Source: Candidatus Woesebacteria bacterium | GTDB lineage: Bacteria; Patescibacteriota; Microgenomatia; UBA8517 | Assembly (NCBI GenBank): GCA_963784785.1 | Contig: CAWASW010000007.1 | Location: 66,394-130,393 of the forward strand | Reading direction: 5' to 3' | Length of the DNA: 64,000 bases | Shown here: piece by piece, positions 31,559 to 52,514 of the stretch | Layout of the letters: each line of letters starts with the position of its first letter | Position numbering within the stretch: position 1 is the first letter of the stretch | Translations under genes and position numbers: made by a program | Notes under the pieces: model-generated | Seen by the model: only the letters and a program-made list of their open reading frames with translations | What the model was told of the DNA's origin: nothing | The model's database searches: none

Positions 31559-32068
31559 TTACCTTTCTTTTCCTATATATGCACCTTCAATCATTCCTCT
31601 AAACCACAATCTATTTGAGACCTCTCGTATTAAATTGGCACGAACCACTTCAATTTCATCATTTGCATTAACAACAACCCAACGAGCATCTATTTCTGCC
31701 ATTTTACGATAGCCAGCATTAGCACGCCTATGAAATGCTTCACTCATTGCGTCCATTCTGTTCCATTCACCACTTTGTGATTTTCTACCTAATCCGACTT
31801 CGATATCCACATCTAATAGAACAGTTAAATCTGGTTCCAAACCTCCAGTTGCAAAGGTAATCAAATCGTTAAGTTTATGTATGCTTTGTTGATGACCAAA
31901 ACCTTGATAAGCTATGGTGGAGTCATAAAAACGATCGCAGACAACTATTTGCCCCAATGCTAATTTCGGTTTAATTACTTCTTCAACTATCTGAGCTCTT
32001 GCCGATTGATAAAGTAATGCTTCAGTTCGCGGATGCATCTCAACGTTTTTGATGTCATGCAAAACATT
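31559..32068 (-). pseudogene. tmk: Thymidylate kinase, C-terminal portion (separated from its N-terminus by an IS insertion)
   Basis: HPRTEALLYQSARAQ...DRFYDSTIAYQG...PDLTVLLDVD are the Tmk LID/core motifs; the fragment joins in-frame to 33199-33420 once the IS plus one TSD copy are removed. Confidence 0.75.
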
Positions 32069-32147
32069 GGCTTAATAGCATAGTGTGTTGATATAACAGA
32101 AAGATATAGTTGATAATACGCCTCATTTTGAGTTTGAATAGTATTCA

Positions 32148-32726
32148 ATGGGTCAAAGAACACTTTTGTGCATATCCTGTAATAGTAAAATGTTTCTGTG
32201 GGGAAAGACTGGAACTGGAAAGAAAAGATGGTTTTGTAAAGTTTGTAAAACTTCAAGAATTTACCACAATAAAAAGAAAGATTTTAAAGTAGTTGATCTT
32301 TTCAGACAGTATATTTTGTGGGGTTTGACATATGAAATGCTGTCTTCTGTCTCAGGTTTGTCTGTAAGATATTTGGAGGGTGAATTTCATAAGTTATTGC
32401 TTCTTGATCCTCCAAAACTTCCTAGATTTGATCAAACTTTGTCTGGAAGAATTGATACTGCATATCTTTTGATTGATGGGCTTTGGTTTGGAAGATGGTT
32501 TGTCTTGATGCTGTATAGACAAAGTGGAACTTTGTACCTTTTGCATGTATCTATTGCTGGTAGAGAGGCTTCAACAAAAATAGTTAAGGATTTGAGGTTC
32601 ATAAAGGAGGAATTAAAATACACATTTTCAGGCTCTGTAACAGATGGAGGAACTGCCATTTGTTCTGCGGTTGATGAAGTGTATCCCCCACTCTCCACAT
32701 CAGATATGTCTTGCTCATATGCATAG
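32148..32726 (+). CDS. Transposase, N-terminal part (C2C2 zinc-finger region)
   Basis: CISCNS...CKVCK zinc-ribbon; continues into the overlapping ORF in another frame. Confidence 0.55.
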   Translation: MGQRTLLCISCNSKMFLWGKTGTGKKRWFCKVCKTSRIYHNKKKDFKVVDLFRQYILWGLTYEMLSSVSGLSVRYLEGEFHKLLLLDPPKLPRFDQTLSGRIDTAYLLIDGLWFGRWFVLMLYRQSGTLYLLHVSIAGREASTKIVKDLRFIKEELKYTFSGSVTDGGTAICSAVDEVYPPLSTSDMSCSYA

Positions 32727-33171
32727 AGATATTGTAAATGCACTTGGTAGACACTCAAAAGATAGAAGAATTGAAGAATTAATAAAAATTGCAAACCACA
32801 TTTGGTTCATAGAAAGTCATGAAGCTTTGAAATACTGGGAAACAATCTTAAAAGATTGGGTTAAGGCTAATTTCTTCTTTCTGAAAGAGATGAGGACAGA
32901 TGATTCTGGCCACAGTTGGTATATTCATAAAGGTGTGAGAAAAGCTGTCAGGATCCTAATTAAACTTCCAAAAACCTCATTCAAGTTTTTAGACCACCCA
33001 ACTATGCCAAAAACAACAAATGAAATTGAAGCTACATTTGGGCATATAGGACAAAGATGGTTAAGACATAAAGGCCTTAAAAAGACTCGTTGGGAAAGTT
33101 ACCTTAAATGGTTTGTATATTATTACAACTTTGAAAAAATGAAGGCCGATAATAAAACAAAACAGGATTAG
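32644..33171 (+). CDS. Transposase, C-terminal part (frame +1 relative to 32148-32726)
   Basis: Overlaps the previous ORF by 83 nt; TTNEIEATFGHIGQRW resembles the T-N-x-x-E motif near the C-terminus of several DDE transposase families. Confidence 0.55.
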   Translation: MEELPFVLRLMKCIPHSPHQICLAHMHRDIVNALGRHSKDRRIEELIKIANHIWFIESHEALKYWETILKDWVKANFFFLKEMRTDDSGHSWYIHKGVRKAVRILIKLPKTSFKFLDHPTMPKTTNEIEATFGHIGQRWLRHKGLKKTRWESYLKWFVYYYNFEKMKADNKTKQD

Positions 33172-33198
33172 AAAAACAACACATTAGTTCCATTAAGC

Positions 33199-33420
33199 CA
33201 AAACATTTCTTATTTGTTCTCCAATTGAAGTTCCACCGGGCTCACGAGTTGGAAAAACAGTAAAACCTTGTTCTCGTAGAAATTGAATAAGACGCGGCAT
33301 CTGTGATGTTTTTCCACAGCCCTCCTCCCCTTCCAGATTTATTAAAAATCCACCATTTATTTTTCGCATCTTGAGGCAAAGATATCTCAGAGCTATCAAA
33401 ACTTCAATGAGGAAAAACAA
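33199..33420 (-). pseudogene. tmk: Thymidylate kinase, N-terminal portion (P-loop)
   Basis: FLINLEGEEGCGKTSQ P-loop and TREPGGTSIGEQIRNVL; read-through into the IS ends at a TAA 3 nt past the TSD. Confidence 0.75.
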
Positions 33421-33423
33421 ATT

Positions 33424-33849
33424 TCATTTTCTGCCAGTACTTCCAAAGCCCTTTTCGACTCTTGAAGAATCTGACAAATCTTCTACAAGTTCGATTGTTG
33501 GTTGTTTTGCATTTTGTAATATTCCCTGTGCAATTTTATCTCCCACTTCAATTTTATAGTCATTTCCACTCAAATTAATCATTATAATTTTCCACTCTCC
33601 TCTGTAACCTGAATCAATCACCCCACCCATAACATGCATTCCTTTAATTGCCATACTACTTCTGTCTCTGATTGATACAAAATAATCGTTAGGTATTTCT
33701 GATGAAATTCCGGTTGCAACAGCATAGTACTCCATTGGTATTAAAGTTTTCACTTCAATTGAATATATTCCAAACCCAGCGTCATCAGTATGTGCATACG
33801 ATGGCATAATTGCCTTCGAGTCAAGAAGTTTAAATTTTAGTTTGTTCAT
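33424..33849 (-). CDS. dut: dUTP diphosphatase
   Basis: dUTPase motifs GVIDSGYRGE and C-terminal GFGSTG. Confidence 0.85.
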   Translation of the reverse strand: MNKLKFKLLDSKAIMPSYAHTDDAGFGIYSIEVKTLIPMEYYAVATGISSEIPNDYFVSIRDRSSMAIKGMHVMGGVIDSGYRGEWKIIMINLSGNDYKIEVGDKIAQGILQNAKQPTIELVEDLSDSSRVEKGFGSTGRK

Positions 33850-34262
33850 TAAAATGATGTTTTAATTCCTACTTTTTTAAAATCAGAATCGAGTGTAAAA
33901 ACTTCATTAATTTTATAATCTTTAACCAAATTAAAAATTGAAGCGTCTACAAAGGATAGCTTATGTTCTGCAAATTTAATCATCGTCTCTGTAGATTTAT
34001 CAAACATAACTTCATCAACATCTAGCACTTTCAGCTCGCCAGCTTTGATAGCAGTATCAATTTGGTTTATTATTTTCTTCAAAACAACCTTTCCCAAAGT
34101 ATAAATAACTCTTGTATAAAGTTCATTCAATACATAATAAGAAGTATAAAATTGATATCTGTTATTGACATACTCGTCAAAATTACTTGAAGCCTCTTTA
34201 TGTTTGATCTCATTTTTAACAAAAATTGCCAAATAAGCACTAGTGTCAATAAATATTTTCAT
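33849..34262 (-). CDS. PIN-domain toxin (VapC-like)
   Basis: MKIFIDTSAY start and PIN acidic residues. Confidence 0.75.
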   Translation of the reverse strand: MKIFIDTSAYLAIFVKNEIKHKEASSNFDEYVNNRYQFYTSYYVLNELYTRVIYTLGKVVLKKIINQIDTAIKAGELKVLDVDEVMFDKSTETMIKFAEHKLSFVDASIFNLVKDYKINEVFTLDSDFKKVGIKTSF

Positions 34263-34609: not shown

Positions 34610-35152
34610 ATGCTAATTATTGGAATTACAGGCACTTCAGGGGCAGGAAAAGGAACAGTCGTCGAATATTTAGTCAACAAACTTAAATTTAGACATTATT
34701 CTGTTGGCGATTACTTAATTGAGGAAATTAAAAAAAGAGGTTTGGAAGCAAATAGAGACAATCAAAGAGAGATTGCAAATGAGATAAGAACATTAAAGGG
34801 ACCGGATTTTATTACACAAGAATTATTTAAAATTGCAGAATCAAAACAAGAAAATGCAATTATAGAAAGTATCAGAAATCCAAAAGAAGTAGATTTCATA
34901 AAATCAAAGGGCGGCAAAATGCTTGCGGTAACTGCTGACCAAAAAATAAGATTTGAAAGAATTAAATTAAGACAATCTGAAAAAGACAACGTAACATTTG
35001 AGGAATTCCAGAAACAAGAAGAAAAGGAATTTCAAAATACTGATCTTAATGCACAGAATCTTCCAAAGTGTATTGAAATGTCTGATATTATTATTACTAA
35101 CAACGAGAGTTTAGAAAAACTATATGAACAAATTGAAGATGCAATTAAATAA
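34610..35152 (+). CDS. P-loop nucleoside/nucleotide kinase-fold protein (dNMP-kinase / dephospho-CoA-kinase-like)
   Basis: N-terminal Walker A GITGTSGAGKGT at residue 5; ~180 aa; overlaps the dCMP deaminase gene. Confidence 0.45.
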   Translation: MLIIGITGTSGAGKGTVVEYLVNKLKFRHYSVGDYLIEEIKKRGLEANRDNQREIANEIRTLKGPDFITQELFKIAESKQENAIIESIRNPKEVDFIKSKGGKMLAVTADQKIRFERIKLRQSEKDNVTFEEFQKQEEKEFQNTDLNAQNLPKCIEMSDIIITNNESLEKLYEQIEDAIK

Positions 35153-35627
35153 TCATGTTCGCCCTAGCTGGGATGAATATTTTTTAAATATTATGAGAAC
35201 TGTGTCCGAAAGGGCGACCTGCGACAGAGGACGAGCGTCTTCAGTTTTTGTAAAAGATAAACAAATCCTAGTAACTGGCTATGTTGGCTCCCCTATTGGT
35301 ATGCCACATTGTGATGAGGTTGGGCATCAACTCAAAAAAACAATTCATGAAGATGGGACAATTACTGAACATTGTGTCAGAACAGTACATGCAGAACAGA
35401 ATGCAATTTGCCAAGCTGCAAGACGCGGTGTCCCGCTTGAAGGCTCTACAGTTTACGTCAATATGACCCCCTGCAGAACTTGTGCAATGCTTCTAATTAA
35501 CTCTTGCATCAAAAGGGTTGTTGCAGCCAACAAATATCATGCCGGCGCCGAATCCGAAGCAATGTTTGCAAAGGCAAAAATAAAACTGGAATTTGTCTCC
35601 TCAGAAGTGGTGAAATATAACAAGTAG
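35124..35627 (+). CDS. dCMP (deoxycytidylate) deaminase, zinc-dependent
   Basis: HAEQNAI ... PCRTCA zinc-binding motifs of the CDA/dCMP deaminase family. Confidence 0.85.
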   Translation: MNKLKMQLNNHVRPSWDEYFLNIMRTVSERATCDRGRASSVFVKDKQILVTGYVGSPIGMPHCDEVGHQLKKTIHEDGTITEHCVRTVHAEQNAICQAARRGVPLEGSTVYVNMTPCRTCAMLLINSCIKRVVAANKYHAGAESEAMFAKAKIKLEFVSSEVVKYNK

Positions 35628-36529: not shown

Positions 36530-36811
36530 TTAATTAAATCTAATTTCCAAATTCTTCCCAAATGCTTCGGCGATTTTTTGTAGAAGGCCAATTGAAGGGC
36601 TGACAGTCATATTCTCTATCCTTGATATTACAGCCTGAGTTGTTTTTGCCTTTTTGGCAAGTTGCCTCTGAGACATCTTTGCATCAATTCTAGCTCTAAT
36701 TAATGCTCTTTGTGCTTGATATGCAGGTTCAAGCCTGTCCCATTCTTTTTTAAACTCAGGATCTTTTAATTGTTCTGCAAGATATTCATCAAAATTTGTG
36801 TGTTTAACCAT
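36530..36811 (-). CDS. XRE-family HTH antitoxin (HigA-like)
   Basis: Cro/C1-type HTH (MSQRQLAKKAKTTQAVISRIE) directly downstream of the RelE/HigB-like gene. Confidence 0.7.
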   Translation of the reverse strand: MVKHTNFDEYLAEQLKDPEFKKEWDRLEPAYQAQRALIRARIDAKMSQRQLAKKAKTTQAVISRIENMTVSPSIGLLQKIAEAFGKNLEIRFN

Positions 36812-36835
36812 AAGATTATGATATCTAATAAGGTA

Positions 36836-37174
36836 TCACATGTCAAGTAGTGTTTTATACCTACTAATTGCGACATTTAACTCTTTTATTGGAGTTTTCT
36901 GACTTTTTTTAACAAAAATATTTAGAATCATTATCTGACCATTTATTATTGATACAAGGATGATCCTGATATTATCATTACCTAAAATTCTATATTCCCA
37001 TAACTTTGTACCGATTAACTTTCTTAAATTTGGAATATCTCTACTTATACCAAATTCCTTTAACGCCGCTATAGCTTTCAATATTTTTGACCTGTACTGC
37101 TTTGAAGAATCATCAAGAATTTTCTTTACAACAGCCTTCCCATTTGAAGATGTATACAGCTCGACAATATACAT
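36836..37174 (-). CDS. RelE/HigB-family toxin (Gp49-like)
   Basis: ~110 aa; KLWEYRI...RIILV...KKSQKTP pattern of HigB/Gp49; toxin-first order. Confidence 0.65.
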   Translation of the reverse strand: MYIVELYTSSNGKAVVKKILDDSSKQYRSKILKAIAALKEFGISRDIPNLRKLIGTKLWEYRILGNDNIRIILVSIINGQIMILNIFVKKSQKTPIKELNVAISRYKTLLDM

Positions 37175-37219
37175 AAATTAATATTAGTACAAATGTTATT
37201 AAAAATAAAATTGAGGCGA

Positions 37220-48037: not shown

Positions 48038-48233
48038 GATACCGTTGCATAAACGGTCACTTGTTTAGCCTTAAATGATTTGTTGTTTTTCGTTAAAATA
48101 ATAACACTTTCGTCCGATTACTCGGACAATGCTGAAATTGGTTGTAGAAGCGTTTACTTAGTGAAACTACCTTTTTAGGCCGAAAGTATAGTAAAATCAG
48201 TGTATTTTAGAAGACCGAAATGTAACGGTCTCG
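48038..48233 (+). repeat. 196-bp structured repeat, copy 1, immediately 3' of tRNA-Thr(UGU)
   Basis: Near-identical to 52319-52514 (2-3 mismatches); begins with hairpin accgttGCATAAaacggt and ends with hairpin gaccgAAATGTAAcggtc; contains a further hairpin gtccgaTTACtcggac. Confidence 0.8.
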
Positions 48234-48293: not shown

Positions 48294-49085
48294 ATGCCCG
48301 CTCGATGGTCCAAAGAAGTTGAGCTTATTAAATTTAGAGAGTTATATGATTTATATGTAGTTCAAAACAAAACAATCGGTGAAATTGGTAAGATCTTGCA
48401 TTTGGCTGAGGCAACTGTTTACGATCGACTACTGAGACTTAACATAAAACCAAATCGTTCAGTTAAGAAAAATTACAATAATCAAAGAAGCGATATAACA
48501 ATTCCACACATTCATACAAGTGAACTCGCTGAATTTTTTGGCATTATGTTGGGTGATGGATGTATATCTCCTACTCAGGTTATGGTCACTTTGGGTAATA
48601 AAGAATTAGACTATGTAAAATACGTTTCCAAACTGATTACTAAGATTTTTAAAATAACACCTAGAATTTACATACGTAAACGTGGATATTATGTTGTATC
48701 TTTTGGATCTACAAAGGCTGTTATATGGCTTATAAATAACAATTTGGTTATGAATAAAGTTAAAAAACAAGTCAAGGCACCTGAGTGGGTTTTAGAAAAG
48801 AAAGTATTTGAACAAAACTTATTAAAAGGATTGTTTGATACTGATGGTTCTGTATATCGGGTACGTTTTGGTGTACAATTATCATTCTCGAACAGATCAT
48901 TGCCTTTATTAAAAGATGTTTTTAATAGTTTAACATTATTAAATTATCATCCATCTAAAATTAGCAGATCTCAAGTTTATTTAACGAGAAAGAAACAGGT
49001 TTTACGATTTTTTAAAGATATAAACCCTGCTAATATAAAACATAGACAAAGATTTGAAGAGTTTGTAAAATATTACGATAAATAG
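48294..49085 (+). CDS. Double-motif LAGLIDADG homing endonuclease
   Basis: Motif 1 FFGIMLGDGCIS and motif 2 LKGLFDTDGSVY ~100 aa apart; sits between two tRNA genes. Confidence 0.8.
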   Translation: MPARWSKEVELIKFRELYDLYVVQNKTIGEIGKILHLAEATVYDRLLRLNIKPNRSVKKNYNNQRSDITIPHIHTSELAEFFGIMLGDGCISPTQVMVTLGNKELDYVKYVSKLITKIFKITPRIYIRKRGYYVVSFGSTKAVIWLINNNLVMNKVKKQVKAPEWVLEKKVFEQNLLKGLFDTDGSVYRVRFGVQLSFSNRSLPLLKDVFNSLTLLNYHPSKISRSQVYLTRKKQVLRFFKDINPANIKHRQRFEEFVKYYDK

Positions 49086-49830: not shown

Positions 49831-50331
49831 TTATTTTTTATTTTTTTCTACAAACTTTTCTACCCATGATGGCAAGTAACCTTTGTGCATATTATATATT
49901 TCAGGTTTGGAAATATCATTCCAATGAAGTACTTTTCTACAATTATCTGCTCCACATCTACATTCCCAATCATAGGCAATATCAGTTCCTTTTGCTTCAT
50001 CAATATCCGTAGTTGCATAGTCATATGTTAGTTCTTCACCTTTTTGCATATCTCTTTTGGCTGAAAGTTCGTTATCTGAAGTCCACCAAGTGTTAGCGTC
50101 ACAGCTGTGGTTCCATGATTCTCCCTTTCCCGTAGCTACAACAAAATTTCCATCACTATCTGGATATGCATCTTTTTTAGTTTCTTCTGGAAGTTCTTCC
50201 CATTCCTCTTTTGTATATTTTTCAGTTTTTGTTAACTTCCAAATTAAAGTATCTTTTGGAATAAACTCTGAAGCAAATACACCATTTCCTTTGTTTGAAA
50301 TTTCTTTTTCATAAACAGAAACATACATCAT
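49831..50331 (-). CDS. SET-domain protein (putative lysine methyltransferase)
   Basis: NHSCDANT (NHSCxPN), ELTYDY, and post-SET Cys cluster CRCGADNCRK. Confidence 0.8.
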   Translation of the reverse strand: MMYVSVYEKEISNKGNGVFASEFIPKDTLIWKLTKTEKYTKEEWEELPEETKKDAYPDSDGNFVVATGKGESWNHSCDANTWWTSDNELSAKRDMQKGEELTYDYATTDIDEAKGTDIAYDWECRCGADNCRKVLHWNDISKPEIYNMHKGYLPSWVEKFVEKNKK

Positions 50332-52318: not shown

Positions 52319-52514
52319 GATACCGTTGCATAAACGGTCACTTGTTTAGCCTTAAATGATTTGTTGTTTTTCGTTAAAATAATAACACTTTCGTCCGATT
52401 ACTCGGACAATGCTGAAATTGGTTGTAGAAGCGTTTACTTAGTGAAACTACCTTTTTAGGCCGAAAGTATAGTAAAATCAGTGTGTTTTAGGAGACCGAA
52501 ATGTAACGGTCTCG
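52319..52514 (+). repeat. 196-bp structured repeat, copy 2, immediately 3' of tRNA-Thr(GGU)
   Basis: See copy 1; starts 7 nt after the tRNA 3' end. Confidence 0.8.

Follow-up and report, generated by a model that had tools for sequence, protein, structure and literature searches.

Elements of the IS256 family of insertion sequences (IS) are generally 1.2–1.5 kb in size. They are described as carrying a single open reading frame (ORF) and a subterminal repeat motif and as moving by a copy-out/paste-in route through a circle; A/T-rich duplications of 8 bp have been reported for both IS256 and ISCth4 (PMC7780238). We analysed a stretch of 64,000 nucleotides (hereafter the window; positions 66,394 to 130,393 of contig CAWASW010000007.1) from a Candidatus Woesebacteria genome of the Candidate Phyla Radiation (CPR)/Patescibacteria, in which a compact element separates two parts of the thymidylate kinase gene, tmk. 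Most probably this locus records a recent and genuine insertion into tmk of an active, multicopy Patescibacteria IS that is distantly related to IS256/IS1249. The event is an ordinary IS insertion, and it allows the boundaries, termini and target duplication to be defined for this compact lineage.

An insertion sequence in tmk

The element occupies positions 32069–33199 of the window (1131 bp) and is inserted in a tmk gene that is encoded on the minus strand, as read directly from the sequence. It is bounded by a perfect 8-bp direct repeat, AAAACATT, which forms the left (32061–32068) and right (33200–33207) copies of the target-site duplication. On the plus strand the left junction (32051–32090) reads GATGTCATGC-AAAACATT-GGCTTAATAGCATAGTGTGTTG and the right junction (33177–33216) reads CAACACATTAGTTCCATTAAGCC-AAAACATT-TCTTATTTG, with TCTTATT directly after AAAACATT. 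The probability that two given 8-mers coincide by chance at 34% GC is about 3e-5; the octamer AAAACATT is found in the 64 kb seven times on the plus strand and three times on the minus strand.

Both termini of the element are GGCTTAAT, and a repeat search found the inverted repeats to be identical over the terminal 8 nt, with about 17 of 23 positions matched overall and one indel. The left terminal inverted repeat (32069–32090, plus strand) is GGCTTAATAGCATAGTGTGTTG, composed of the terminal GGCTTAAT and a subterminal GTGTTG box, and the right one (33177–33199, minus strand) is GGCTTAATGGAACTAATGTGTTG when read as its reverse complement. The GTGTTG box is present in both repeats, at positions 17–22 or 18–23, and the termini are kept in related elements. 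A sigma-70-like site (TTGATA-18-GATAAT; 32088–32117, plus strand) lies just inside the left repeat, 30 nt 5' of the transposase ATG. It is a match to the consensus only and is possibly the transposase promoter, such sites occurring in the region at the frequency expected by chance. No convincing outward-reading promoter was found in the IS.

Deletion of positions 32069–33207, i.e. the element together with one copy of the repeat, gives an open minus-strand frame of 672 nt that encodes 223 amino acids (aa). The restored protein scores 160.6 bits against the TIGR00041 dTMP kinase model (cut-off 83.25), matches PF02223 with E = 9e-45 and conserves the motifs GEEGCGKT (P-loop) and CDRFYDS. Its alignment with intact Tmk proteins of Woesebacteria (66–83% identity) extends from end to end and runs through the junction (...GEQIRNVL-HDIKNVEMH...) without a gap. 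Eighty-six columns are invariant across nine Tmk orthologues, and the two tmk halves keep every one of these residues. The colinearity extends to the DNA level, as the closest intact gene (locus L018) is 81.6% identical over 662 nt with no indel at the insertion site. A sequence-only reading of this DNA had proposed the precise insertion of an element of about 1130 bp between two tmk halves, flanked by inverted and direct repeats, with an in-frame Tmk once the element and one repeat were removed. All of these features are present on re-inspection, and both the terminal 8 nt and the 8-bp duplication are perfect.

The insertion falls in codons 55–57 and cuts tmk into a P-loop fragment of 57 residues and a remainder of 166 residues. 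As found, the gene has no uninterrupted coding sequence, being split after codon 57 by 1131 bp, and the IS termini supply stop codons next to both junctions. The 5' part (33200–33369, minus strand; codons 1–57, including the P-loop GEEGCGKT) is delimited by profiles, by the orthologue alignment and by an independent 58-aa gene call in L001. Its frame continues past the junction for one Ala codon and then meets an IS-derived TAA, so that the ORF ends at 33193. The 3' part (31559–32068, minus strand; residues 55/58–223, including the DRF motif and the LID region) is delimited by profiles, by the same alignment and by a gene call in L002. Its ORF begins at a TTG at 32062 that is made of duplication and flank, and no Shine-Dalgarno-like sequence was seen 5' of this TTG. 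From the split gene one would expect a P-loop peptide of 58 aa and, at most, a remainder of 167 aa initiated at the TTG. While the two halves that had been described are real, the TTG at 33420 that had been given as the start of the gene is not retained: the start is most likely the ATG at 33369, because homologues begin there and the independent gene call agrees.

The surrounding gene order is topA, a Gp49/HTH pair, dCMP deaminase, kinase, PIN, (dut), tmk, (glyA, folD), FTCD_C, rpsB, tsf, frr, RseP and ProRS. In Candidatus Woesebacteria GW2011_GWA1_33_30 and related assemblies a tmk of 224 aa that is not interrupted lies within a matching gene order, and by this synteny the interrupted gene appears to be the single tmk at its normal locus. 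Within the 64-kb window, blastn and tblastn found neither a second tmk nor a further copy of the IS, and thyA and thyX are both absent from it. The other genes of the window belong to an ordinary core chromosome (YchF, CysRS, RecR, DnaX, MreB, PBP2, Def, Fmt, NusG, L1). The gap between dut and tmk is 55 nt, that between tmk and glyA is 15 nt, and folD comes another 20 nt on. Because the genes dut-tmk-glyA-folD are closely packed and read in one direction while the IS faces the opposite way, the insertion probably also has a polar effect on glyA and folD.

The transposase, its family and its spread

In agreement with the sequence-only reading, the transposase is split over two overlapping frames of the plus strand. 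ORF1 (32148–32726, 192 aa) encodes a CxxC...CxxC zinc ribbon and the catalytic residues D110 and D166, followed by an out-of-frame tail of 12 residues. ORF2 (32644–33171, +1 frame) encodes the motif QICLAHMHR and the catalytic E292 within TTNEIEA. The frameshift site is a run of five C (C5; 32685–32689, plus strand), one C more than in intact relatives, and when one C is removed from this run the ORFs fuse to give a 340-aa protein. The 90%-identity cluster of the fused protein contains four proteins of 340 aa and one of 339 aa, which read ...DEVYPH(M/A)PHQICLAHMHR... through the shift site. At the DNA level two relatives have TAT-CCTCAT and TAT-CCCCAT here, and the window has TATCCCCCAC. Relatives at 80–93% identity have a single ORF of 340 aa, and one intact ORF is present at no fewer than 65 of the 76 related loci. 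In an alignment of 17 sequences the zinc-ribbon cysteines (C8/C11/C30/C33), D110, D166 and E292 in TTNEIEA are invariant, and we assign the last three, by position and motif, as the putative DDE triad.

The change from C4 to C5 lies between D166 and E292, and therefore neither ORF alone has a full active site. To judge from the relatives, the split is a one-base insertion, either a disabling frameshift or a base-calling error, and not a family trait. The single ORF that characterizes the IS256 family is thus found in the relatives and is lost from this copy through the extra C. Given the single 340-aa ORF of the relatives, there is no support for reading the split frame as a feature by design. 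Programmed frameshifting as a property of the family was likewise considered and rejected, as close and distant relatives alike have one ORF. With both catalytic aspartates on one side of the extra C and the catalytic glutamate on the other, this copy most likely lacks autonomy and depends on transposase made elsewhere.

Searched against curated models, the fused protein matches NCBIfam IS1249 over its full length (E = 4e-35, 121.6 bits, cut-off 300; residues 7–326 on positions 3–323 of 382), followed by ‘IS256 family transposase, variant Zn-binding type’ (E = 6e-26, 91.4 bits, cut-off 150). It reaches 30.4 bits with the IS256 model (cut-off 150) and a sub-threshold 18.9 with Pfam PF00872 (Transposase_mut; threshold 21), and the matches to the IS256, ISH6 and IS66 models are weak and local. 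Relatives at 53–64% identity carry precomputed PF00872 hits, and the IS1249 and IS256 zinc variant models rank first for 17 of the 17 relatives tested. Full-length homology to IS1249 and zinc-variant IS256 transposases (NF033544, NF048019) is accompanied by an N-terminal four-Cys zinc ribbon, a DDE core in which D and E are widely spaced, a TTNxIE motif and one ORF in intact copies. The elements also have in common termini that start with GG, a subterminal repeat motif and A/T-rich 8-bp duplications (PMC7780238). However, the elements described here are, at 1.10–1.14 kb, shorter than those of the IS256 family, their hosts are Patescibacteria, and their scores fall far under the curated cut-offs; the solved ISCth4 transposase is beyond the reach of the family profile. 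On the combined grounds of sequence, profile matches and relatives, we annotate 32069–33199 (plus strand) as an IS distantly related to the IS256 superfamily, of the IS1249-like zinc-ribbon type. We would class it as a divergent lineage at some distance from IS256/IS1249 and not as a textbook member.

The sequence-only reading had ventured an IS1595-like affiliation. The IS1595 family does resemble this element in its small size, its 8-bp duplications and its N-terminal zinc ribbon (NF050000, IS1/IS1595 Zn, 23 bits, E = 9e-5), but only this ribbon of the transposase is IS1/IS1595-like. The match to NF033547 is limited to 41 residues (14.2 bits, E = 0.03, cut-off 75), the catalytic domain is unmatched, and IS1595 is absent from the families matched at E ≤ 0.001 by the 17 relatives. 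The affiliation was accordingly dropped.

At E ≤ 1e-10 the transposase has 438 homologues. A small number carry names, either ‘transposase [Patescibacteria group bacterium]’ or Saccharimonadales, and most homologues lie on contigs of about 1.1 kb, which are collapsed repeats. Elements from other assemblies are 1.10–1.14 kb long and have the termini GGCTTAAT and the GTGTTG box. Perfect 8-bp duplications, mostly A/T-rich, flank 15 elements (those in the window, L007, L008 and 12 further loci), including all that are located on long contigs. These comparisons point to a compact IS group that is widespread in Patescibacteria, usually with one ORF of about 340 aa, and that is missed by curated IS models as all of its scores fall under their cut-offs. 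Related IS are also present on short-read contigs of 1.2–2 kb (L009 and many of L021–L080), where the flanking 8-mers are often unmatched, whereas the duplications of copies on long contigs are always perfect. A likely reason for the unmatched flanks is that, where the repeat collapsed, sequences flanking different copies were joined into chimeras.

A scan of genome contigs with the transposase returned one locus (L007), on the 379-kb contig CAVZPH010000003.1 of the metagenome-assembled genome (MAG) MFD02832.bin.3.209. The search for further copies that the sequence-only reading had called for thus yielded one outside the window. This second copy is 100% identical over 1131 bp, including the same C5, and is flanked by a different duplication, AGTTTTCG. 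L007 and the window also share a 195-bp non-IS repeat at 100% identity, and judging by these identities the L007 genome is the same or a nearly identical one. In cluster data the exact 192-aa ORF1 occurs on three long contigs and its Met15-start version on three more; exact look-up of ORF2 and of the Met15-start ORF1 returned no record. Because the second copy is 100% identical yet has a different duplication, the IS is multicopy and recently active. The insertion in tmk is itself recent, since the tmk halves are undecayed and the IS copies are identical over 1131 bp; a recent transposition, and not old decay, had also been the earlier interpretation.

If the frameshift is real, the presence of identical frameshifted copies at different sites means that the defective element still moved. 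The simplest account would be that transposase is provided in trans by an intact copy, although no candidate for such a copy is visible. Less likely, ribosomes may now and then slip by +1 on CCC-C, where shifting is known to occur readily. The spread of these copies thus raises the question of mobilisation in trans versus +1 recoding at CCC-C.

The interrupted allele and the survival of its host

The best reconstruction is that an IS with a zinc-ribbon and DDE transposase transposed into codons 55–57 of tmk in a Woesebacteria-like genome. If it behaves like members of the IS256 family, it probably took the copy-out/paste-in route through a circular intermediate. The duplication would have arisen when the A/T-rich target AAAACATT was cut with a stagger of 8 bp and then repaired, and tmk was left as a P-loop fragment and a remainder with IS-derived stops at both junctions. 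The frameshifted copy was most likely moved by transposase made elsewhere. Survival of the cell without Tmk would most likely be explained by the coexistence of intact alleles in the population or by another dTMP-phosphorylating activity encoded outside the window.

Several observations weigh against this reconstruction. With no named IS model does the transposase reach the curated cut-off (121.6 vs 300 and 91.4 vs 150 bits for the best two). Compared with solved structures, the family profile found no IS256-family structure at E ≤ 1 and returned only spurious zinc-finger hits, and for this reason the family placement and the copy-out/paste-in mechanism rest on distant homology. The extra C could be a base-calling error, the source apparently being a MAG project that relied on Nanopore reads polished with Medaka. 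tmk has generally proved essential where tested, and a fixed null allele is unexpected. Finally, the contigs from a second assembly that are described below may derive from the same reads as the MAG.

In the Logan assembly of run ERR12037365, which is a k-mer assembly, the contig from the dut side reaches 26 nt into the right end of the IS before it stops, that from the glyA side covers 28 nt of the left end, and the IS interior forms a separate contig of 1076 nt; all three are 100% identical to the window. These contigs support the insertion by showing both junction sequences in the output of a second assembler, together with the pattern of a multicopy repeat. They leave little room for an assembly chimera, in which the IS would have been joined into tmk by repeat mis-assembly. 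The IS is indeed a multicopy repeat of the kind that breaks short-k assemblies, and a chimera had been raised in the sequence-only reading; but neither the precise 8-bp duplication, which chimeric joining does not make, nor the exact restoration of the frame would be expected from it, and the flanks are two halves of one gene in conserved synteny. We regard a chimera as highly improbable. The same contigs bear on a mixed population, in which the IS-bearing tmk would be one allele among coexisting intact-tmk cells, reported by the assembler as the insertion haplotype and maybe representing a transient, deleterious or lethal event. That tmk is normally essential, that the undecayed halves and the 100% identity of the IS copies mark the insertion as very recent, and that the IS is active and multicopy in this genome all speak for such a mixture. 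Recent and precise insertions of active multicopy IS into undecayed housekeeping genes are found as population variants in metagenomes; here, however, the target is the normally indispensable tmk, and the occupied allele looks dominant in one run. An abundant empty-site allele in ERR12037365 is unlikely, because the Logan contigs run unbroken through the junctions into the IS, where such an allele would give a branch, although a minor allele below about one quarter of the coverage might have been lost when the graph was cleaned. A search of JGI metagenome contigs with an exact 30-mer spanning the restored site gave no hits, and no full-length Tmk above 83% identity is present among 5.8 billion protein clusters. 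Taken together, a mixed population is a possible but doubtful explanation. It is unlikely, too, that the split transposase is an artefact, i.e. that the true element has C4 and an intact 340-aa ORF and that the extra C is a systematic Nanopore homopolymer error in every copy. The C4-to-C5 insertion is not a typical R10.4.1 error, and a window-level tally found 26 other G or C runs of 5–7 nt alongside long ORFs at a coding density of about 92%. On the other hand, both IS copies and the Logan contig share this C5, which is what a systematic error would produce. The project's MAGs were built from Nanopore reads only, with one round of Medaka polishing, and its authors discuss residual indel errors, which they tie to homopolymers longer than 6 (PMC12313526).

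It is rather improbable that the tmk-null genotype is fixed and viable, with dTMP phosphorylated by a second tmk elsewhere or by the AAA_18/UPF0200-like kinase encoded at 34610–35152, or with thymidine nucleotides derived from a host. The occupied allele appears dominant, and this kinase is a complete protein of nucleoside monophosphate (NMP)-kinase fold whose gene is clustered with the thymidylate-related genes dut, dCMP deaminase, glyA and folD. Its 180-aa product has the generic fold (AAA_17/AAA_18; PRK08356, E = 4e-17) and scores just above threshold with the phage dNMP kinase family PF21448 (29.3 vs 27.1 bits), the sole hint that it may act on dTMP. The match to PF02223 (Thymidylate_kin) is negligible, however (E = 0.97, 9.5 bits), the nearest solved chain is the uncharacterised AdkA-like protein SSO1041, and the window holds no second tmk. 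Moreover, the kinase gene overlaps the dCMP deaminase gene (35124–35627) by 29 nt, and the same overlapping pair sits beside intact tmk in related Woesebacteria; the pair was therefore not recruited in response to the insertion, nor acquired as a replacement for Tmk. Functional compensation, which had been raised as a question for this locus, is thus unsupported in the sense of a special acquisition of these two genes. More far-reaching still is the combination in which a fixed and viable tmk-null cell of an ultra-small CPR bacterium obtains dTDP/dTTP without canonical Tmk, through the conserved AAA_18/UPF0200-like kinase with its partner dCMP deaminase or from a host, and the frameshifted IS is self-mobile by +1 slippage on CCC-C. 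A leaky, self-mobile IS would explain the spread of identical frameshifted copies, but we consider this combination very unlikely. Should the null allele nevertheless prove to be fixed, it would point to a non-canonical dTDP route in CPR bacteria. With the recent insertion of an active IS as the preferred explanation, this MAG is flagged as one whose annotation would show an essential gene as absent or as a pseudogene owing to a recent event.

Other features of the window and of the L007 contig

Each gene of the kinase-deaminase pair (34610–35627) is homologous to one half of the anti-phage dCTP deaminase (NF041025/PADLOC dCTPase). With the PADLOC dCTPase profile the kinase gives E = 8e-20 (profile positions 155–329) and the deaminase E = 4e-15 (positions 431–484); with NCBIfam NF041025 the kinase gives E = 1e-11, at 43.9 bits against a cut-off of 400. 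While the defence enzyme is a kinase-deaminase fusion, here the two parts are encoded by overlapping genes, and this split arrangement is conserved in related Woesebacteria near dut and tmk. By homology, the pair could be a housekeeping module for dUMP supply or a split enzyme of the defence type.

Modules of toxin-antitoxin type flank the nucleotide-metabolism genes at 33849–34262 and 36533–37177. One is a PIN-domain gene directly upstream of dut and the other is a Gp49 (HigB-like) and HTH_3 pair beside topA; both keep their position in relatives.

A repeat of about 196 bp is present twice in the window (48038–48233 and 52319–52514) and once in L007 (2701–2895), each time directly 3' of a tRNA gene: tRNA-Thr(tgt) and tRNA-Thr(ggt), and tRNA-Met in L007. 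The window copy at 52319–52513 is 100% identical to that of L007, and the other window copy differs at two positions. The repeat ends in inverted repeats, GAGATACCGTTGCAT ... ATGTAACGGTCTC, that are paired in the predicted fold (z = -3.0), and no Rfam family was found for it at the gathering threshold. It looks like a miniature inverted-repeat transposable element (MITE) or a structured RNA. Kinship with the ends of the IS was considered and set aside, only chance matches of 13–15 nt being found. In L007 the IS copy lies 26 bp downstream of this repeat, and an open frame of 258 aa ends inside the tRNA-Met that precedes it.

Between the repeat and tRNA-Tyr, the window contains a free-standing ORF of 263 aa (48294–49085) with a LAGLIDADG_3 homing-endonuclease-like domain (E = 1e-12). 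At 49831–50331 this bacterial genome encodes a 166-aa protein with a SET domain (E = 2e-12). Lastly, L007 (CAVZPH010000003.1, 1–4907) is labelled ‘uncultured Actinomycetota bacterium’; its GC content is 35% and its IS and tRNA-linked repeat are 100% identical to those of the window, and the label looks wrong.

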